Assembly (NCBI RefSeq): GCF_055900595.2
Contig: NZ_CM148325.1
DNA: 64,000 bases
Reading direction: 5' to 3' (one strand)
Shown: one piece after another, positions 3,852 to 49,790 of the stretch
How positions within the stretch are numbered: position 1 is the first letter of the stretch
Layout: each line of letters starts with the position of its first letter
Notes under the pieces: generated by a model
Databases searched by the model: none
Told to the model about the DNA's origin: nothing
What the model saw: the letters and a program-made list of their open reading frames with translations, nothing else
Program-made: the position numbers and the translations under genes

Positions 3852-5147
3852 TTATTCGCTGTTTTTGGCAATTAAACGTTCCGGGATAACAAAACTGAAA
3901 CGCGTACCTTTTCCCACCGTACTCTCAATATGCAGGCGACTTTCGTGATGATTCACCGCATGTTTCACGATCGCTAACCCTAATCCGCTACCGCCAGTTT
4001 GTCGGGAACGTGCTTTATCAACGCGATAAAAACGCTCGGTCAGGCGCGGAATATGCTCCGGTGCGATGCCCGGTCCATTATCTTCAACGCTAAATTCGGC
4101 ACCGTGCGGCACTCGCTGCCAGCGTACGGTGATATGCGTACCTTCCGGCGTATGATTCACGGCGTTATATACCAGGTTAGAAATCGCGCTGCGAAGTTGG
4201 TCTTCGTTGCCAGACACCTTGAGGTCGTTATCTATTTCAAAGGTAAATGTCTGTTTCTGCTGGCTCAGAGTCTGGGCCTCACGCTCAACGACCCGCAGCA
4301 TCATCGGCACATCAACCTTTTCATTAAGCAACTGCGTTGGCGCGGCTTCTATTTTTGACAGCGTCAGTAACTGCTTCACCAGCCCTTCCATCCGCTGGGT
4401 CTGCTCGCGCATGGTGTGCAACGCTTTTTCACGTACCGCACCTTGCAGTGGTTGCTCATCCATCATCTCCAGGTAACCCTGTAACACTGTCAATGGCGTA
4501 CGCAACTCATGGCTCACGTTGGCAAAAAAGTTACGCCGCGCCCCTTCCAGTTGATGCATTTGCGTGACATCACGCGCCACCATCAGCAACTGTTTGTGGG
4601 TATAAGGCATGACGCGAATTTCCAGATGCCGCCCGGTATTGAGCACCAGATTGAGCGGGCGAGAAAAATCACGCGTTTTCAGATATTGCGTAAACTCCGG
4701 ATAACGAAGCAGATTAAGGATGTTCTGCCCGTTATCTTCCGGCCAGCGCAAACCAAGAATTTGTTGCGCCAGACCATTACACCAGAAAATACCGCCCTCT
4801 TCCGTGGTCAGCACCACCGCATCAGGCAGCGACTCCGCGCCGCTACGAAAGCGTTTAATCAGATTGCCCAGTTCGCGGCGACGTTTTTTATTACGCAGCT
4901 GCATCTGGTGTAAGCCGTATAGCAGCGGTTCCCAGCTACCACGCCCCGGAGGCGGGGTCATACTGCGATCCACCCACAGCCACCATGAAAGGCGCAATAA
5001 ATTCCAAAAATGCCAGATAAGCAGTCCTGTTACCGATGCCAGCAAAAACCAAGGCAGGTAACCAAAAAATGCACCCAGGATGAAAGCCGGGAGGCAGCAA
5101 AGTAGCAGCTCCAGCACCAGCCTTTTCCACGACAGCCGTTCCAGCAC
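3852..5147 (-). CDS. phoR: phosphate regulon sensor histidine kinase PhoR
   Basis: ORF track, 431 aa; N-terminal membrane segment, HELRTPLT H-box and ATPase motifs. Confidence 0.95.
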
Positions 5148-5204
5148 GTAAGATACTCCAGTTAAGAAATCATAAGCCCTGCTCTGCGTCCGATGAGCAA
5201 GGCG

Positions 5205-5894
5205 TTAAAAGCGGGTTGAAAAACGATATCCTGTACCGCGTACGGTCTGCACCATGCGGTCATGTCCGCCGGGCTCCAGTGCCTTACGCAGGCGACGAAT
5301 GTGAACATCGACCGTGCGGTCTTCCACATATACGTTGGTTCCCCAGACGTGGTTTAACAGCTGCTCGCGGCTGTACACGCGCTCGGGATGCGTCATAAAA
5401 AAGTGCAGCAGTTTAAATTCTGTCGGCCCCATCTCCAGCGGTTCTTCGCCCGCCATCACCCGGTGAGATGTCGGGTCGAGACTGAGCCCCTGCATCTCGA
5501 TCACCTCTTCCACCGCCATTGGCGAAATACGGCGCATTACCGCTTTGATTCGCGCCACCAGTTCCTTCGGCGAAAATGGCTTGGTGATATAGTCATCCGC
5601 ACCGGTTTCAAGGCCGCGCACGCGATCTTCTTCTTCCCCTCTGGCGGTCAGCATCACCACTGGAATATCTCGGGTCATCGACTCGCGCTTGAGGTGTTTG
5701 ATGAACTGGATACCGGAGCCGCCAGGTAACATCCAGTCAAGGAGAATTAAATCCGGCCAGGGTTCATTCAGTTGATTCACAGCACTGTCATAATCTTCCG
5801 CTTCGACCGGCTGAAAGCCATTTTGTTCGAGCACGAAGCAGACCATTTCGCGAATTGGAGCTTCATCTTCTACGACCAGAATACGTCTCGCCAT
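5205..5894 (-). CDS. phoB: phosphate regulon response regulator PhoB
   Basis: ORF track, 229 aa, [18 protein letters not shown] matches PhoB. Confidence 0.97.
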
Positions 5895-33912: not shown

Positions 33913-34437
33913 TTGTCATCCCTCCTCAGGGACGTAATAAGTTGATCCATCAATTATCAATGCATAGAAAACATATTATGTTTCGCGTTTACGATTATGC
34001 GGCGTTATAGAGGAATGGTTCAATTATTCTTTCCCCTAAGTCCGATTGCGGACATATATAAAGCACGTGAACACACACACAGAAAGAAATAACAAAAACA
34101 CAATATTTCAATACGTTAATGAAAGCGTTAATTTTAAAACATAGACCATGAAAATATAAAACAACTAAAACAGACAAATAATCTATCAATAACCAATGAA
34201 CTTTACGTTATTCACTTTTTGAAAACGTCACCAAATCCCCAAAAACAATAATCTATAGCTATAAATAAAAATTAAAAATATTTTCAATGAATATAAATTT
34301 ATTGCTATTTCTATTACAAAGATGTCCTGACCTCTCATTCATTCTCTTCTTATCAACATCACGACAACTTTCGTAAAACATCCCCACCCTGCTTCAGGTA
34401 TACTATGCTCCTCGATTCCACAAACATCAGGCAGACC

Positions 34438-38866: not shown

Positions 38867-39168
38867 GATTGTCTGCTCCCCTGTCTTGTTATGGGAGCAG
38901 TATTTCGTTGCGGGTCAGTTTGATAAAGGAATTAAAACGTCTTGTTAAGAACAAAGCGTTTTTAGAAAAAAACTGGCAATGGTTAGCGAGTTTACGCATT
39001 TTGCAGCTTGGGCGAATGTAGCATGCCGATTCACAAACCAGATCAGATGTTCGCTCTCCGGCAAATTATTGCCATTTTGTTACATCCATTCCATATCTGT
39101 CGCTGGTAGATTGCCAGCGCCGCGCCGTGATGCATGATAGGAGAATGAGATAATAAGAGAAGAAAAGT

Positions 39169-39798
39169 ATGATTAGGGTTGTGCTGGTGGATGACCATGT
39201 GGTGGTGCGCTCTGGCTTCGCACAGTTACTCTCTCTGGAAGACGATCTGGAGGTCATTGGTCAGTACAGTTGTGCCGCGCAGGCATGGTCGGCATTAACT
39301 CATAATGACGTTAATGTTGCCGTCATTGATATCGCCATGCCGGACGAAAATGGCCTCAGTCTGCTTAAGCGTCTGCGTGCACAAAAACCGCAATTCCGCG
39401 CCATTATTCTTAGCATTTATGACACGCCAACCTTTGTACAAAGCGCTCTGGATGCTGGTGCCAGCGGCTATTTGACCAAACGCTGTGGGCCGGAAGAGTT
39501 AGTGCAGGCGGTGCGCTCGGTCGGGATGGGCGGGCATTATCTCTGCGCCGATGCAATTCGGGCTTTACGCGGCGGCGGGCAACCCGCCCAGGCGTTGGAA
39601 ATTCTCACCCCACGAGAACGTGAAGTGTTTGATTTATTAGTCAAAGGCGACAGTGTCAAAGAGATCGCCTTTAAGCTCGAACTCAGCCATAAAACGGTAC
39701 ATGTACATCGCGCCAACGTGCTGGGAAAACTGAACTGTCATAGCACCATTGAGCTGGTGCATTTTGCACTCAATCACCATCTGCTGGCGGGGCATTAA
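39169..39798 (+). CDS. UhpA-like NarL/FixJ-family response regulator (paralog, not the canonical uhpA)
   Basis: ORF track, 209 aa; receiver domain with conserved Asp residues and C-terminal LuxR-type HTH; close resemblance to UhpA from memory. Confidence 0.85.
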   Translation: MIRVVLVDDHVVVRSGFAQLLSLEDDLEVIGQYSCAAQAWSALTHNDVNVAVIDIAMPDENGLSLLKRLRAQKPQFRAIILSIYDTPTFVQSALDAGASGYLTKRCGPEELVQAVRSVGMGGHYLCADAIRALRGGGQPAQALEILTPREREVFDLLVKGDSVKEIAFKLELSHKTVHVHRANVLGKLNCHSTIELVHFALNHHLLAGH

Positions 39799-41339
39799 TG
39801 TCGCGTAACCTTCGTCATTGGGTGATTTCGCTGTTTATTGTGCTGGCCTGGGGAAGCGGCTGGCTGATGTTGTGGACGCTCAGCTTTTATCTGACCAATA
39901 ACGGTCAACAGGCAGTGTTATTTCTGCCGCACGGAGTTTACCTCGCTCTTCTTATTTTGCTCTCTCGCCGTTACTGGCCTGCGTTGGTGCTCCCCCCTTT
40001 GCTGATGATGTTCTGGCTGCACAGCGAGCAACTGTTGAACGGCTATCTCATGCTGGCAACGCCGGTTATTAGCCTGCTTCCTGCCATCCTTGCACAAAAC
40101 GTCTGGCACCGTTTTCCACTTTACTGGCAGCGTCTGACGTTGCTGTTAGCCTCAGTAACAGCAGCTTCATTGCTGAATACAGCCATGCTAACCCCTTTTA
40201 TGTCAGGCCCAATAATGCTGCCCGGTCTGACCTCATTTACCGGCGGCGTATTGTTGACGCCGTTTGTCTATCTCATCTTTGAGTTTCTGCGCCAGCAGCA
40301 TCGCTATCAGCTTCTGAGACTCGATACGCATAATCCCCCCTTGCGAACCTCTTTAATCATCTGGTGTAGCCTATTTTTTATTATTGGTATCGGCACCCAG
40401 ATGGTGTTGTCGCCTGAAATCGAACGCCTGCTGCTGATCGTGGTATTTCTACCCAATGTGGTCATGGCCTGGAAATTTGGCTGGCAAGGTGGCGTACTCT
40501 CGGGGCTTTTGGGCAGCATGATGATCACTATTGCCCGCCAGATTGGCGTGGGCTTTAGTAACCTGGTGGAACTGGAGATTTTTCTCGCAACCCAGGCATT
40601 GCTGGGAATTGGCCTGGGCATTGCCATCAGTCGCCAGCAACATCTGGCGCTAAACCTGCATCATTACCGTCAGCGACTGGAGGCAGAACTGGCAGCACGG
40701 CGGGCATTGGCTGAAAAGCTGATCCACACCGAGGAAGACACGCGTAAAAGCCTGGCTCGCGAGCTGCACGACGAAATCGGTCAGAACATTACCGCCATTC
40801 AGATCCAGTCGCAACTGGTGACGCGGGCACGCGATCCGGCGCAAGTTCATTCCGCAGCCAGCCAAATCAACGAACTCGCCCGCCGCATTCATCTCTCCAC
40901 CCGCCAGTTGCTGCGCCAGTTGCGGCCACCCGCGCTTGATGAACTGACATTCCGCGAAGCATTACTTCATCTGATTAATGAATTTGCCTTTAGTGAACGC
41001 GGCATTCATTGCCAGTTTACCTATCAACTAACCACCACGCCAGAAAACGAAACGGTTCGCTTTACACTGTATCGGTTATTGCAGGAGTTACTCAATAACG
41101 TCTGTAAACACGCCGAAGCCAGCGAAGTGACGATTATTCTGCGCCAGCAGGGAGAGATATTGCACCTGGAGGTCAGCGACAACGGTATAGGAATCGCCAG
41201 CGGGAAAATGACCGGATTTGGCATTCAGGGGATGCGTGAACGCGTCAGTGCCCTGGGCGGCGACTTAACGCTCGAAAAACATAACGGTACGCGAGTAATT
41301 GTTAACCTGCCCACATTTTTGCAACAAATCGCCGGATAA
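39798..41339 (+). CDS. UhpB-like sensor histidine kinase (multi-pass membrane N-domain + HisKA_3/HATPase)
   Basis: ORF track, 513 aa; H-box LARELHDEIGQ; 1-nt start/stop overlap (TAATG) with the upstream regulator gene. Confidence 0.85.
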   Translation: MSRNLRHWVISLFIVLAWGSGWLMLWTLSFYLTNNGQQAVLFLPHGVYLALLILLSRRYWPALVLPPLLMMFWLHSEQLLNGYLMLATPVISLLPAILAQNVWHRFPLYWQRLTLLLASVTAASLLNTAMLTPFMSGPIMLPGLTSFTGGVLLTPFVYLIFEFLRQQHRYQLLRLDTHNPPLRTSLIIWCSLFFIIGIGTQMVLSPEIERLLLIVVFLPNVVMAWKFGWQGGVLSGLLGSMMITIARQIGVGFSNLVELEIFLATQALLGIGLGIAISRQQHLALNLHHYRQRLEAELAARRALAEKLIHTEEDTRKSLARELHDEIGQNITAIQIQSQLVTRARDPAQVHSAASQINELARRIHLSTRQLLRQLRPPALDELTFREALLHLINEFAFSERGIHCQFTYQLTTTPENETVRFTLYRLLQELLNNVCKHAEASEVTIILRQQGEILHLEVSDNGIGIASGKMTGFGIQGMRERVSALGGDLTLEKHNGTRVIVNLPTFLQQIAG

Positions 41340-41411
41340 CCAGGAAAAAGTCTTAGGCATCCCGGATTTTCTCTCATCCTCTTTCACTTTCATTTTCATA
41401 TAGTCAGCAAC

Positions 41412-42728
41412 ATGGAGACGACCATGCACGCACGTTCAGCGAGAGAGATTAATCAATGCTACCGGACATTACGTCCGCGATTGCTGATGTGCATGATTAT
41501 TGGCTACGCCGCATTTTATCTGACGCGAAAAAGCGTGAATTACGTCCTTCCGGCGCTGCAAACCGACCTCGGACTGGATAAAGGCGACATTGGCCTGCTG
41601 GGTTCGCTGTTTTATCTCAGCTACGGATTGTCGAAATTTACCGCCGGACTGTGGCATGACAGCCACGGACAACGCGGTTTTATGGGCGTCGGCTTGTTCG
41701 CCACTGGGCTATTGAACATGGTGTTTGCCTTTGGCGAATCACTTACGCTTCTGCTTGTGGTCTGGACACTGAACGGTTTTTTTCAGGGCTGGGGATGGCC
41801 ACCGTGTGCCCGCTTACTGACCCATTGGTACTCCCGTAATGAACGTGGTTTCTGGTGGGGCTGCTGGAATATGTCGATCAACATTGGCGGAGCGATTATT
41901 CCGCTGATTAGCGCCTTTGCCGCCCACTGGTGGGGCTGGCAGGCCGCGATGCTGACACCGGGGATTATCAGCATGGCATTAGGGATCTGGTTAACGCTAC
42001 AGCTTAAAGGCACACCCCAGGAAGAGGGATTACCGACGGTGGGTCAGTGGCGTCACGATCCGCTGGAATTACGTCAGGAACAACAAAGTCCGCCGATGGG
42101 GCTGTGGCAAATGTTGCGAACCACAATGCTGCAAAATCCGATGATCTGGCTGCTGGGTGTCTCTTATGTACTGGTTTATGTGATCCGGATTGCGCTAAAC
42201 GACTGGGGCAATATCTGGCTGACGGAAAGCCACGGCGTCAACCTACTCAGCGCCAACGCCACGGTAATGCTGTTTGAAGTGGGCGGCTTACTCGGCGCGT
42301 TATTTGCCGGATGGGGTTCGGATTTGCTGTTTAGCGGGCAGCGAGCCCCCATGATTTTGCTGTTTACCCTTGGGTTGATGGTTTCGGTCGCTGCACTCTG
42401 GTTGGCACCGGTTCATCACTATGCCCTTCTGGCTGTGTGCTTTTTTACTGTGGGCTTTTTTGTCTTTGGCCCGCAAATGCTGATTGGACTTGCGGCAGTG
42501 GAATGTGGACACAAAGCTGCGGCGGGTTCAATTACCGGATTTCTCGGCCTGTTCGCCTATCTCGGTGCGGCGCTGGCAGGCTGGCCGTTGTCGCTGGTTA
42601 TCGAACGCTACGGCTGGTCAGGAATGTTCAGTTTACTCTCGGTCGCCGCAGTACTTATGGGTTTACTGCTGATGCCGTTACTGATGGCGGGCATCACCAC
42701 CACTCACGCTCGAAGGATAAAACAATGA
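41412..42728 (+). CDS. UhpC-like MFS sugar-phosphate sensor/transporter (organophosphate:Pi antiporter family)
   Basis: ORF track, 438 aa; strong resemblance to UhpC/UhpT (e.g. FFQGWGWPPCARLLTHWYSRNERG). Confidence 0.85.
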   Translation: METTMHARSAREINQCYRTLRPRLLMCMIIGYAAFYLTRKSVNYVLPALQTDLGLDKGDIGLLGSLFYLSYGLSKFTAGLWHDSHGQRGFMGVGLFATGLLNMVFAFGESLTLLLVVWTLNGFFQGWGWPPCARLLTHWYSRNERGFWWGCWNMSINIGGAIIPLISAFAAHWWGWQAAMLTPGIISMALGIWLTLQLKGTPQEEGLPTVGQWRHDPLELRQEQQSPPMGLWQMLRTTMLQNPMIWLLGVSYVLVYVIRIALNDWGNIWLTESHGVNLLSANATVMLFEVGGLLGALFAGWGSDLLFSGQRAPMILLFTLGLMVSVAALWLAPVHHYALLAVCFFTVGFFVFGPQMLIGLAAVECGHKAAAGSITGFLGLFAYLGAALAGWPLSLVIERYGWSGMFSLLSVAAVLMGLLLMPLLMAGITTTHARRIKQ

Positions 42729-43756
42729 AAATGCCCCTTACCTCTACTCTGATTGCTTCTGCCGTTGCGCTGGCAACCTTAACGGGTGCCGCACAAGCGA
42801 AAGGTCGACTGGTGGTCTATTGCAGCGCCACTAATGAAATGTGTGAGACCGAAACCAAAGCGTTTGGCGAGAAATATGATGTGAAAACCTCGTTTATCCG
42901 CAACGGCTCCGGTAGCACCCTGGCAAAAGTCGATGCTGAAAAGAAAAACCCACAGGCTGACGTCTGGTACGGCGGCACCTTAGACCCGCAGTCGCAGGCC
43001 GGCGAGATGGGCCTGTTACAGGCATATAAATCGCCTAACCTTGAACAGATCATGGAAAAATTCCGCGATCCGGCAAAAGTGAAAGGAAACCTTTCCTCCG
43101 CCGTTTATGTGGGGATCCTCGGGTTTGGCGTCAACACAGAGCGTCTGAAAGAGAAAAACCTGCCTGTGCCGAAGTGCTGGAAAGATCTCACCAAACCTGA
43201 ATATAAAGGCGAAATTCAGATTGCCGATCCACAAAGTTCCGGTACCGCCTACACCGCGCTGGCTACCTTTGCGCAGCTGTGGGGGGAAGATCAGGCCTTT
43301 GATTATCTAAAACAACTTAACACCAACGTCTCCCAGTACACCAAATCAGGCATTGCCCCGGCACGTAACGCCGCCCGCGGCGAAACGGCGATTGGTATTG
43401 GCTTCCTGCATGACTACTCGCTGGAAAAAGAACAGGGTGCGCCGCTGGAGTTGATTTCCCCGTGTGAAGGTACGGGCTACGAAATTGGCGGCGTCAGCAT
43501 TCTGAAAGGCGCGCGCAACCTCGACAACGCCAAACTGTTTGTGGACTGGGTATTATCAAAAGAAGCTCAGGAACTGGCGTGGAAGAAAGGGAAGTCTTAT
43601 CAGATCCTGACCAATACCACCGCCGAAACGTCGCCAAATTCGCTGAAGCTCGACGACCTGAAATTAATCAACTACGACATGGATAAATACGGTTCCACGG
43701 ATGTTCGTAAGGCATTGATTAATAAATGGGTCAGCGAAGTGAAGATGGGTAAATAA
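42725..43756 (+). CDS. afuA: AfuA/FbpA-type periplasmic substrate-binding protein of an ABC importer
   Basis: ORF track 42437..43756; start placed at MKMPLTSTLIASAVALATLTGAAQA (signal peptide); ATGA overlap with the preceding gene. Confidence 0.85.
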   Translation: MKMPLTSTLIASAVALATLTGAAQAKGRLVVYCSATNEMCETETKAFGEKYDVKTSFIRNGSGSTLAKVDAEKKNPQADVWYGGTLDPQSQAGEMGLLQAYKSPNLEQIMEKFRDPAKVKGNLSSAVYVGILGFGVNTERLKEKNLPVPKCWKDLTKPEYKGEIQIADPQSSGTAYTALATFAQLWGEDQAFDYLKQLNTNVSQYTKSGIAPARNAARGETAIGIGFLHDYSLEKEQGAPLELISPCEGTGYEIGGVSILKGARNLDNAKLFVDWVLSKEAQELAWKKGKSYQILTNTTAETSPNSLKLDDLKLINYDMDKYGSTDVRKALINKWVSEVKMGK

Positions 43757-43824
43757 ACCCGCATTGCGTGCATTTGCCGGGCGCAGCACAAACGCCTGCC
43801 CCGGCCAACCATACCGGAACTGCT

Positions 43825-45903
43825 ATGTCACAGACACTTGCACTCCATCCCGTGAAAAAGCGGGATGCGATTTTCCTTTGGGTTTTGCTGGGCTGGCTGG
43901 CATTTATCCTGTTGCCGAGCTGGAGCCTCGATTATGGCCTGCTGGAGTCCACGAGTGATGAGATCCTCGAGGCTTATGGCTGGTCGCATTTTAATATCAG
44001 CTGGCTGTGGTATTTATTACCGAGTCTGTTGCTGGTTCGTCCGTTTCGTGAGGCCACACGCGAACAGCGTAGTCGTCATTATTTTGATGCCAGTTGGGCA
44101 TTGCTCTGTATGGCGTTTATCGTCATCAGCGCCACCGTGGCTGGACGCGGTTTAGGCTACGCCGCCATCGTGCTGTTTATCGAATTAAGCGCGATAATGA
44201 CGCTGGCCTTAACCCGCCTCGAATGGCTGGGTGGCGACCGCTTTGTGATCGGCTCGCTGATTGCGATTGTGGCGCTGATTGGCATTTTTATCGTCTGGCC
44301 GAGCATCGCCATTTTTATCCCGATGTTCACCAACGACGCGGGAGAGTTCGCCCCACTGGCGTTTATGAATGTGCTCTCGCAGGCCCATATCATTCAGGTG
44401 ATCGTCAACTCTATCGTCTTATCGATAGCGGTGGGTATTGGCTGTACTTTCTTCGGTCTGGTGCTGGCGATATATACCACGCGCATCGCTAAACGCAGCG
44501 CCGTAATCGGCCGCATCTTTTCCATTCTGCCAATTGTCACGCCACCGTTTGTGGTCGGCTTAGGCGTTACGCTCATGATGGGGCGCTCCGGCTACATAAC
44601 GGAATTTATGGTGGAGTGGTTTGGGCTGACCAACACCAACTGGCTGTATGGTTTTACCGGGATCTGGCTGGCACAGGTCCTGGCATTTACGCCAATGGCT
44701 TTTATGATCCTCGATGGGGCCATTAAAACCATTCATCCCTCGCTGGAAGAAGCCTCCTACACCCTGCGCGCCAGCCGCTGGCAAACCTTTAACGGTGTGT
44801 TTGTGCCGTTGTTAAAGCCCGCGCTTGCCAATGCCTTTTTAATCGTTGTGGTGCAGTCACTGGCTGACTTCAGTAACCCGCTGGTGCTTGGCGGCAACTT
44901 CGACGTACTGGCGACGCAAATTTACTTCTACATTACCGGCTCGCAGCTGGATTATCAGGCCGCCAGCACCCTTGGCGCTTTCCTGCTGCTGTTCTCGCTA
45001 CTGGTGTTCTGCGTCCAGTATATGTGGATTGGTAAACGCTCTTACGTCACGGTTTCCGGAAAGTCCTACCGCGGCGATGTCCAGCCACTACCGGTCACCC
45101 TGGTGTGGAGCGTGGTCGCCATACTTGCGATATGGATTGCCTTTAACGCCCTGCTCTATGGCAGCATTTTCTACGGCAGCTTCACTGTGAACTGGGGCGT
45201 TGACTACACCCTGACGCTGGATAACTTTATCAAGTTATTTGGTCAGGGGATGAGCGACGGCGCGTGGCCTTCACTGTTAGATACCTTGCTCTACGCCGGG
45301 ATTGCCGCCCCCATTACCGCTATCTTTGGCCTGCTCATCGCCTGGGTGGTGGTGCGCCAACAATTCAAAGGCAAAAAGACCATAGAGTTCACCACCATGT
45401 TGTGCTTTGCCGTACCGGGTACAGTGGCGGGTGTCTCGTATATTCTTGCCTTTAATAGCGCCCCGGTCTATCTCACCGGAACGGCAGCAATTGTGATTAT
45501 TTCGATGGTGATGCGCAACGTTCCGGTGGGTATTCGCGCCGGGATTGCAGGTCTGGGGCAGATCGACAAATCGCTGGATGAAGCCTCACTTAGCCTGCGT
45601 GCGGGTTCCCTGCGAACCATTACGCACATTTTACTGCCGTTGTTACGCCCAGCTATTCTCTCGGCCCTGATTTACAGCTTTGTGCGGGCTATCACGACGG
45701 TCAGCGCCATCGTCTTTCTCGTCACGCCGGACACACGCGTGGCAACCGCCTACATCCTTAACCGCGTAGAAGACGGCGAATATGGCGTAGCCATCGCCTA
45801 CGGTTCGATTCTGATCGTGGTGATGCTGGCGATTATTTTCCTCTTTGACTGGCTGATCGGTGAAGCACGTATTTCCCGTTCTAAAGCCAAAAACCAGGCG
45901 TAA
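43825..45903 (+). CDS. afuB: AfuB/FbpB-type fused two-domain ABC permease
   Basis: ORF track 43768..45903; start placed at MSQTLALHP (692 aa); many transmembrane segments. Confidence 0.85.
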
Positions 45904-45914
45904 TGGAGCGCACT

Positions 45915-46961
45915 ATGAGTCAGAAAAATTTTGTGGAACTGCGCAACGTCACTAAACGATTCGGCAGTAATAGGGTTATCGACAATATCAATCTCACCAT
46001 CCCACAAGGGCAAATGGTGACGCTGCTCGGTCCTTCCGGATGCGGCAAAACCACCATTCTGCGTCTGGTTGCCGGGCTGGAAAAACCGAGCGAAGGGCAA
46101 ATTTTTATAGATGGCGAAGATGTCACGCATCGTTCCATTCAGCAACGCGATATCTGCATGGTGTTTCAGTCATACGCTCTGTTCCCACATATGTCGCTGG
46201 GCGAAAACGTTGGCTATGGGCTGAAAATGCTTGGCGTGTCGCGTAGTGAAGTGAAGCAGCGGGTGAAAGATGCGCTAGCAATGGTGGATCTGGAAGGATT
46301 CGAAGACCGCTATGTCGACCAGATTTCCGGTGGTCAGCAACAGCGTGTGGCTCTGGCCCGTGCGTTGATCCTTAAGCCTAAAGTGCTGCTGTTTGATGAG
46401 CCGTTAAGTAACCTCGATGCCAACCTGCGTCGCAGCATGCGCGATAAAATCCGCGAGCTGCAAAAGCAATTTAACATCACTTCGCTCTATGTGACTCACG
46501 ATCAAAGTGAAGCTTTCGCGGTGTCCGACACCGTGTTGGTGATGAATAAAGGTCACATCATGCAGATTGGTTCACCGCAGGATCTCTATCGTCAGCCCGC
46601 CTCCCGCTTTATGGCAAGTTTTATGGGCGACGCCAACCTGTTCCCGGCGAACTTTAGCGAAGAGTATGTCGATATCTACGGTTATCGCCTGCCGCGCGCG
46701 GCGCATTTCCCGGCGCAAGGTAGCGGCACCGTCGGCGTTCGCCCGGAAGCCATCACCTTAAGCAATCACGGCGAAGAGAGTCAGCGTTGTGTTATTCGCC
46801 ATGTCGCCTACATGGGGCCGCAGTACGAAGTGACCGTAGAATGGCATGGTCAGGAGATTTTATTGCAAGTCAACGCCACCCGTTTACAGCCCGATATTGG
46901 TGAGCACTATTACCTCGAAATCCATCCTTACGGGATGTTTGTTTTAGCGGATGCGGCATAA
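45915..46961 (+). CDS. afuC: AfuC/FbpC-type ABC ATPase
   Basis: ORF track 45903..46961; start at [12 protein letters not shown]; Walker [10 protein letters not shown], signature ISGGQQQRV. Confidence 0.88.
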
Positions 46962-46973
46962 AAATAGCACATA

Positions 46974-47003
46974 AACGGTCCCAACCTGTCTTGAGGGACC
47001 GTT
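46974..47003 (+). terminator. possible afuC terminator hairpin (aacggtccc ... gggaccgtt)
   Basis: 9-bp perfect inverted repeat 13 bp after the afuC stop; trailing T-run is weak. Confidence 0.45.
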
Positions 47004-47042
47004 CACCTGTTTAGACGTCGGACAACAATTATTCTCAGGTGT

Positions 47043-47097
47043 TATATACTATAGGGGGGTATGCATTGACATATAGCATACCCCCCTATAGTATATT
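47043..47097 (+). promoter_or_regulatory. frmR promoter/operator: long perfect palindrome atatactataggggggtatgc ... gcatacccccctatagtatat
   Basis: About 21-bp inverted-repeat arms around a central attgacatata, immediately upstream of frmR; consistent with a FrmR operator. Confidence 0.7.
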
Positions 47098-47120
47098 GCG
47101 TGCAGATGATGAGGTGCGAA

Positions 47121-47396
47121 ATGCCCAGTACTCCGGAAGAGAAGAAAAAGGTCCTTACTCGAGTTCGTCGTATTCGGGGGCAAATTGATGCTCTGGAACG
47201 GTCGCTGGAGGGTGATGCCGAATGCCGTGCCATACTCCAACAGATCGCTGCCGTTCGGGGCGCGGCTAACGGGCTGATGGCAGAAGTGCTTGAAAGCCAT
47301 ATCCGGGAAACGTTTGACCGAAATGACTGCTACAGCCGCGAAGTCAGCCAATCCGTTGACGACACTATTGAACTGGTTCGTGCCTATCTTAAATAG
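47121..47396 (+). CDS. frmR: formaldehyde-responsive repressor FrmR
   Basis: ORF track 47100..47396; start placed at [21 protein letters not shown] (91 aa). Confidence 0.92.
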
Positions 47397-47400
47397 CTGA

Positions 47401-48540
<1,140 letters not shown>

Positions 48541-48632: not shown

Positions 48633-49466
48633 ATGGAACTCATTGAAAAACATGCCAGCTTTGGCGGCTGGCAAAATGTGTATCGGCATTATTCCCAATT
48701 ACTGAAATGTGAAATGAATGTCGGCGTCTATCTCCCACTAAAAGCCGGGAATGAAAAATTGCCGGTACTGTACTGGCTTTCGGGCCTGACCTGTAACGAG
48801 CAGAATTTCATTACTAAATCGGGGATGCAACGTTACGCGGCTGAGCACAACATTATTGTTGTTGCGCCAGACACCAGTCCGCGAGGCAGTCATGTCGCAG
48901 ATGCCGACCGTTATGATCTCGGGCAAGGTGCCGGGTTTTACCTGAACGCAACGCAAGCGCCGTGGAATGAACATTACAAAATGTATGATTATATCCACAA
49001 CGAGCTGCCGGATTTAGTGATGCAACATTTTCCGGCAACGGAAAGAAAGTCAATCGCGGGTCATTCAATGGGCGGCCTGGGCGCGCTGGTGCTGGCGTTA
49101 CGTAACCCAGATGAATATGTCAGCGTCTCGGCATTTTCGCCCATTGTCTCCCCATCGCAAGTACCGTGGGGACAGCAAGCCTTTGCCGCGTATCTTGGTG
49201 AAAATAAAGAAACCTGGATGGATTACGATCCGGTGAGCCTTATTTCACAAGGTCAACGCGTTGCGGAAATCATGGTTGATCAAGGATTGAGTGATGATTT
49301 TTACGCAGAACAGCTGCGGACTCCAAATCTTGAAAAGATCTGCCAGGAGATGAATATCAAAACGTTAATCCGTTATCACGAGGGTTATGATCACAGCTAT
49401 TATTTTGTCTCCAGTTTTATTGGCGAGCATATTGCCTACCACGCCAATAAACTGAATATGCGTTGA
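48633..49466 (+). CDS. frmB: S-formylglutathione hydrolase FrmB
   Basis: ORF track, 277 aa, MELIEKHASFGGWQNVYRH; GHSMGG esterase motif. Confidence 0.95.
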   Translation: MELIEKHASFGGWQNVYRHYSQLLKCEMNVGVYLPLKAGNEKLPVLYWLSGLTCNEQNFITKSGMQRYAAEHNIIVVAPDTSPRGSHVADADRYDLGQGAGFYLNATQAPWNEHYKMYDYIHNELPDLVMQHFPATERKSIAGHSMGGLGALVLALRNPDEYVSVSAFSPIVSPSQVPWGQQAFAAYLGENKETWMDYDPVSLISQGQRVAEIMVDQGLSDDFYAEQLRTPNLEKICQEMNIKTLIRYHEGYDHSYYFVSSFIGEHIAYHANKLNMR

Positions 49467-49790
49467 GCATCCGCGCACGCCAGCCGGATGCGGCGTGAAC
49501 GCCTTATCCGCCTACATTTCGCCCATAAACCGTAGGCATGATAAGACGCGCATAGCGTCGCATCAGGCATCTGCGCACAGCTGCCGGATGCGGCGTGAAC
49601 GCCTTATCCGCCTACATTTCGCCCATAAACCGTAGGCATGATAAGACGCGCATAGCGTCGCATCAGGCATCTGCGCACAACTGCCGGATGCGGCGTGAAC
49701 GCCTTATCCGGCCTACATTTCGCCCATGAGCCGTAGGCATGATAAGACGCGTCAGCGTCGCATCAGGCATCTGTGCACGGCTTATCGATG
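49467..49790. repeat. BIME-type array: about three tandem copies of a ~100-bp unit, each with paired REP palindromes
   Basis: Unit ctgccggatgcggcgtgaacgccttatccgcctac...gtaggcatgataagacgcg...gcatcaggcatctgcgcaca repeated with a few substitutions. Confidence 0.8.

Follow-up and report, generated by a model that had tools for sequence, protein, structure and literature searches.

Organization of the frmR upstream region

The window, that is, the whole 64,000-nucleotide stretch of contig NZ_CM148325.1 analysed here, contains a long perfect palindrome between afuC/fbpC, the last gene of an accessory island, and frmR, which is followed by frmA and frmB (Table 1). As the first-pass annotation had placed it, the palindrome lies between the afu island and frmR: it begins 82 bp after the afuC/fbpC stop (ORF end 46961) and ends 24 bp before the frmR ATG (47121). 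The product of frmR matches the FrmR equivalog model well above its cut-off; its score on the RcnR model, 68 bits, falls far short of the cut-off of 138. Beyond frmB, between this gene and yaiL, we observed three tandem units of about 100 nt (49486–49778) that contain repeated spurious open reading frames (MNALSAYISPINRRHDK...). One unit fewer is present in strain Z0117EC0005, which is otherwise near-identical, and two are present in K-12. The arrangement resembles a REP/BIME-type array of variable copy number.

On the other side of the palindrome, afuA, afuB and afuC occupy 42725–46961 and are preceded by a uhpC-like gene (approximately 41424–42728). The 'ferric' annotation of AfuABC/FbpC is probably a misnomer; Sit et al. 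(2015; PMC4546632) found AfuABC to be a hexose/heptose-phosphate transporter. A role in sugar-phosphate uptake fits the adjoining uhpC-like sensor and the two-component system in the island. After afuC, the island-specific DNA contains a hairpin that is possibly the afuC terminator, in which case it would shield the frm promoter (Pfrm) from read-through. Its loop is longer than 8 nt, so that the terminator scan made no call for this candidate.

Table 1 Features in and around the palindrome (window coordinates)
Feature	Coordinates	Strand	Details
afuC/fbpC	45903–46961	+	ABC-transporter ATPase, last gene of the upstream accessory island; NF008513, 697 bits
Hairpin after afuC, candidate terminator	46974–47003	+	9-bp stem (AACGGTCCC / GGGACCGTT), 12-nt loop; island-specific DNA; sequence reading
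Short conserved leader	47018–47043	+	CGGA..AA..TTATTCTC..GTGTT; common to every upstream context examined; island/core junction at its left edge
Left palindrome arm	47044–47064	.	ATATACTATAGGGGGGTATGC; perfect complement of right arm
Putative FrmR site 1	47046–47062	+	ATAC-TATAGGGGG-GTAT, type I CsoR/RcnR-family operator (definition from Denby 2016); G6 tract 47054–47059
Spacer	47065–47075	+	11 nt between arms; consensus −35 TTGACA at 47066–47071
Right palindrome arm	47076–47096	.	GCATACCCCCCTATAGTATAT; perfect complement of left arm
Putative FrmR site 2	47078–47094	−	Reverse complement of site 1; plus-strand C6 tract 47081–47086; overlaps −10 box
Alternative −10, TATAGT	47087–47092	+	Alternative to TAGTAT at 47089–47094
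−10 hexamer, TAGTAT	47089–47094	+	17-nt spacing from −35; 10/12 consensus matches
Shine–Dalgarno for frmR, GAGGTG	47110–47115	+	Sequence reading
frmR	47121–47396	+	91 aa, formaldehyde-responsive DUF156 repressor; NCBIfam NF008464 FrmR equivalog, 189 bits, cut-off 133
frmA	47431–48540	+	S-(hydroxymethyl)glutathione dehydrogenase; TIGR02818, 743 bits
frmB/fghA	48633–49466	+	S-formylglutathione hydrolase; TIGR02821, 396 bits

The palindrome is the longest in the window

The arms of the palindrome are 21 nt each and 100% complementary, and they are separated by the 11-nt spacer ATTGACATATA. All 21 positions pair and the G6 and C6 runs can be assigned to 47054–47059 and 47081–47086, in agreement with the earlier description of perfect arms of about 21 bp with G6/C6 runs. 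That description had set the extent of the palindrome at 47043–47097; the palindrome itself is real, but these boundaries overshoot it by one base at either end, since positions 47043 and 47097 both hold T and do not pair.

With loops of up to 20 nt allowed, no other perfect inverted repeat in the 64-kb window is as long. The runner-up has arms of 13 nt, and the longest arms in ten shuffles of the whole window were 8–11 nt. Each arm contains the 17-mer ATACTATAGGGGGGTAT, at 47046–47062 on the plus strand and at 47078–47094 on the minus strand. These are the two exact copies in the window, compared with 0.02 expected by chance, and a search that tolerated up to three mismatches found the 17-mer nowhere else in the window. 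The shuffles and the 17-mer count rule out a chance origin of the palindrome.

As single-stranded DNA, the palindrome has a folding energy of −21.5 kcal/mol, compared with −7.5 ± 2.1 kcal/mol in shuffles (z = −6.6). Such a stable predicted fold would be consistent with a structural role, in which the palindrome acts as a DNA cruciform or an RNA hairpin, for example as a terminator or insulator against read-through from afuC or as a supercoiling-sensitive switch. However, the stem is followed by a run of T on neither strand, and at the palindrome the terminator scan made no call. Rfam gave only sub-threshold matches to generic miRNA hairpins, with 21–27 bits against gathering scores of 80–100 (best match, 26.8 bits; gathering score, 90). 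The missing T-run, the terminator scan and the sub-threshold Rfam matches together exclude an intrinsic terminator or a structured RNA at the palindrome.

Two putative FrmR sites bracket the −35 element

The 17-mer has the form ATAC-N9-GTAT with the G6 tract inside, which is the form of a type I operator of the CsoR/RcnR (DUF156) family. We found this form at 47046–47062 and, as its reverse complement, at 47078–47094; by our count, the centres of the two putative FrmR sites are 32 bp apart. Two further properties of type I DUF156 operators are present: the gene for the cognate repressor, frmR, adjoins the sites, and the sites overlap the core promoter, with the −35 between them and the −10 inside site 2. 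Within 46800–47500, the sole match to a sigma-70-like promoter is the one with its −35 in the spacer and its −10 in the right arm.

Transcription of frmR is predicted to start at approximately 47099–47101. The lower value follows from the description by Denby et al. (2016; PMC5146963) of a repeat 'centred at −29', together with the palindrome centre at 47070. On this numbering, the palindrome covers approximately −55 to −3 of the frmRAB promoter. Because it lies upstream of the predicted transcription start, it would be absent from the frm mRNA, which argues against a function as an RNA hairpin in that transcript.

The frm promoter is intact beside a variable island

The first-pass annotation had also proposed that the frm promoter sits undisrupted at the junction with the island. 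We found that fbpC adjoins frmR in only 450 of 5,426 E. coli genomes. In other genomes, among the matches listed, homology to the window begins at 47029 (query base 180), with weaker similarity from approximately 47018, so that the shared sequence starts about 15–26 bp upstream of the palindrome. Given these starting points, the frm promoter lies intact just inside the shared DNA, as had been proposed. The island in the window is about 8 kb long (approximately 39005–47017), with its left junction at approximately 39004 and its right junction at approximately 47018–47029. It carries a response regulator, a MASE1 histidine kinase, the uhpC-like gene and afuABC, and no integrase.

Other Escherichia genomes have different DNA at this position. 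In E. albertii and Escherichia sp. E1V33, tauA adjoins frmR, with about 75 bp between the two genes, including REP-like sequence. The same tauA|frmR gap holds yaiO and neighbouring genes in K-12 and E. whittamii, and Escherichia sp. MOD1-EC7003 shows a further, different upstream context. From these alignments, the window island and the K-12 yaiO block look like alternative fillings of the same gap. At least four upstream contexts share the breakpoint 15–26 bp upstream of the palindrome, and the operator-promoter is left intact.

Among complete genomes, NZ_CP098223 is the closest; window positions 33984–64000 align with it collinearly at 99.8–99.96% identity. Upstream of hemB, this genome carries a class 1 integron, TnAs3 and IS1, which are unmatched by the window (window <33984; L002 1–7134).

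The position of the palindrome, no more than about 26 bp from a junction at which four or more upstream contexts meet, might suggest that it is the remnant or end of a mobile element, such as a MITE, a REP-like repeat or a terminal repeat of the island, that is tied to the afu island. Its distribution argues otherwise. The 53-mer is single-copy, with a median of one place per genome across 5,134–5,387 E. coli genomes, and the window contains it at one locus. It is located on the conserved frm side of the junction, and it is present in the 'empty-site' genomes in which tauA adjoins frmR as well as in K-12, which lacks the afu island. The single copy, with no dispersed copies found, and the presence of the palindrome in island-free genomes exclude a mobile-element repeat; we give this origin practically no credence. 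The palindrome is likewise identical in genomes without afuC upstream, which is difficult to reconcile with a cruciform or hairpin that insulates the frm genes from afuC read-through.

The perfect palindrome is the majority allele in E. coli

Comparison with the K-12 frmR upstream region had been put forward as a check on the operator assignment. In an alignment with Pfrm of MG1655 (K-12), 52 of the 53 positions across the palindrome are identical, and the match is collinear through frmR. The one difference is at position 47077, which is C in the window and A in K-12; the K-12 arms are therefore complementary at 20 of 21 positions, compared with 21 of 21 in the window. A second difference, G in the window and A in K-12, lies just downstream of the palindrome at 47099. 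The exact 53-mer is present in 3,554 of 5,135 matching E. coli records, and 1,578 records are one or two bases off. The perfect palindrome is thus the majority E. coli allele, and the K-12 laboratory reference is a variant. The prevalence of perfect arms among E. coli genomes would favour a cruciform or hairpin, but a stem mismatch is tolerated in K-12.

Both formaldehyde biosensing and synthetic methylotrophy make wide use of Pfrm. A mildly useful point is therefore that the K-12 allele in such constructs is a minority operator variant with one mismatch.

The pair of sites is conserved in other genera

Lack of conservation at other frmR promoters had been named as the finding that would count against an operator. 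We read the upstream 100 nt at 80 loci that encode FrmR relatives in species-representative genomes. At all 18 loci with an FrmR of at least 84% identity, two ATAC...GTAT sites flank a TTGA(C) −35, and the proximal site overlaps the −10. These loci come from other Escherichia, Citrobacter, Klebsiella, Pantoea, Edwardsiella (including a plasmid copy), Enterobacter, Providencia, Morganella, Serratia, Erwinia, Aeromonas and Maribrevibacterium. The two-site layout around the −35 is therefore kept in other genera, among them Enterobacterales and Aeromonas, and the operator reading withstood this comparison. The G6 tract is not universal; GTGGAG, GTGTAG, GTGGGG or GGGAG is found instead, depending on the genus. 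Perfect arms of 18–21 nt also occur in the Edwardsiella plasmid, Enterobacter and Morganella group, and most other lineages have one to four mismatches per 17-mer.

Two arrangements in these genomes bear directly on a structural role. The two FrmR sites of Erwinia are direct repeats, and a single site is found in Tatumella, Pasteurellaceae and alpha-proteobacterial relatives (for example, ATACTATA-CTCCCA-TATAGTAT), so that a hairpin is impossible in these lineages. When the left arm was compared with the reverse complement of the right arm, we counted 1.67 mismatches within lineages and 2.11 between lineages (9 lineages; permutation p = 0.07). As this difference in arm likeness is not significant, we make no claim of selection for complementarity as such. 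Taking these observations with the stable fold and with the missing T-run, we consider it very unlikely that the palindrome functions as a cruciform or hairpin. Judged by sequence comparison, what is conserved and selected is two protein-binding sites on either side of the −35, rather than a hairpin, because distant relatives have one site and the Erwinia sites are direct. A long palindrome arises where the two 17-bp sites are inverted relative to each other and near-identical.

The 21 nt of perfect symmetry are more than two independent 17-bp sites need, and the 31-bp site spacing is unusual compared with 19 bp at rcnR-rcnA (Denby et al., PMC5146963). Both features would be compatible with a second, conventional dimeric regulator that reads the 53-bp dyad besides FrmR. 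According to the literature, however, deletion of frmR alone leads to constitutive expression, and no other regulator is reported in the FrmR literature examined. Outside Escherichia, moreover, the symmetry no longer extends past the 17-mers, and a second regulator of this kind seems extremely improbable. Other explanations of the extra symmetry in Escherichia are intrastrand template switching from one arm to the other, which would keep the arms homogeneous, and a clamp in which one tetramer holds the sites with its two faces and loops out the −35; separately, the palindrome might promote integration, because four upstream contexts share the breakpoint 15–26 bp upstream of it. We regard these ideas as unlikely. 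That one FrmR tetramer could clamp both sites is a possibility raised by Denby et al. (PMC5146963).

We also noted frmR-frmA cassettes with the two-site operator on plasmids, including Edwardsiella anguillarum plasmid 1 (L010) and E. coli plasmids, and near-identical frm copies across unrelated genera, for example in a Citrobacter MAG, Klebsiella grimontii and Maribrevibacterium. On the basis of these plasmid cassettes and near-identical copies, the sequences indicate that the frm operon and its operator have spread horizontally together. Upstream of the operator, a TTATTCT block (window 47029–47036, TTATTCTC) is kept in Escherichia and is also found in L010, L012 and L020 (Edwardsiella plasmid, Enterobacter and Morganella), at approximately −92 to −85 from the ATG. 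This block could enlarge the region that FrmR contacts, in line with the DNA wrapping reported for RcnR, or it could be the edge of a mobile frm cassette.

A model for FrmR repression at the palindrome

The K-12 literature provides direct evidence on this promoter. Denby et al. (2016, Sci Rep 6:38879, Fig. 6a; PMC5146963) described in K-12 Pfrm a large inverted repeat whose centre is at −29 and which holds tandem FrmR sites of type I, built from ATAC/GTAT repeats around G/C-rich tracts. For K-12, the literature documents in vivo repression as well as specific binding to a Pfrm fragment and release by formaldehyde. FrmR bound the MG1655 Pfrm fragment, a PCR product, with a Kd of approximately 220 nM by BLItz, compared with approximately 3,600 nM for a control promoter, in data fitted to a 1:1 model (PMC5146963). 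Formaldehyde dissociated the FrmR–Pfrm complex; in vitro transcription was blocked by FrmR and relieved by formaldehyde (PMC5146963). A biosensor review (PMC6540204) offers nothing further on the operator, and the literature examined for FrmR and Pfrm yielded no footprint of E. coli FrmR on the individual arms. In Salmonella, a 33-bp C6 site accommodates two FrmR tetramers, and binding was lost when one of the T/A-rich repeats of this site was mutated (Osman et al., PMC4528141, PMC5016687).

Very probably, then, the palindrome is the operator-promoter of an autoregulated frmRAB operon, in which two inverted FrmR sites bracket the −35. The first-pass annotation had considered the palindrome consistent with an FrmR operator, and three lines of evidence support it: an FrmR equivalog is encoded immediately downstream, the palindrome matches K-12 Pfrm at all but one position, and FrmR binding and repression have been published for that promoter. 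Without formaldehyde, tetrameric FrmR would occupy both sites and shut out RNA polymerase. One tetramer per site is likely, although a single tetramer that uses both faces has also been proposed (Denby et al., PMC5146963). Once formaldehyde has cross-linked Pro2 of FrmR to Cys35, FrmR comes off the DNA, and frmR, frmA and frmB are then transcribed. We infer the contacted bases, the stoichiometry on the E. coli operator and the occlusion of the −35 and −10. The mechanism is established for the repressor together with the promoter fragment, and the assignment of FrmR sites to the E. coli arms follows from analogy with RcnR and from the Salmonella mutant.

As an FrmR operator-promoter, the palindrome is ordinary and already published, and the current understanding of FrmR is unchanged by it. 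For this strain, the result means that the formaldehyde-detoxification operon keeps an intact autoregulated promoter despite a different neighbouring island.

Comparison with known systems

The nearest known system is K-12 Pfrm, which has the same locus, genes and architecture as the window and in which the −35, −10 and Shine–Dalgarno sequences are identical. The two differ in their upstream neighbour, which is yaiO in K-12 and afuC in the window.

Another close system is the rcnR-rcnA intergenic operator of RcnR (Iwig and Chivers 2009, as cited in Denby 2016). Its flank sequence differs from that of the window, its site centres are 19 bp apart, compared with 31–32 bp in the window, and its effector is Ni/Co rather than formaldehyde. 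Denby et al. likewise gave the centre-to-centre spacing of the Pfrm sites as 31 bp and considered it unusual relative to the 19 bp of the rcnR-rcnA intergenic region (PMC5146963).

The frmRAPro of Salmonella Typhimurium (Osman 2015, 2016) likewise combines a C6 tract with T/A-rich inverted repeat flanks, and its repression is relieved by formaldehyde. It has one C6 site, whereas the window has two inverted sites, and Salmonella FrmR is only 52% identical to E. coli FrmR. Osman et al. called the E. coli and Salmonella FrmRs polyphyletic, with distinct operator-promoter sequences (PMC4528141, PMC5016687).
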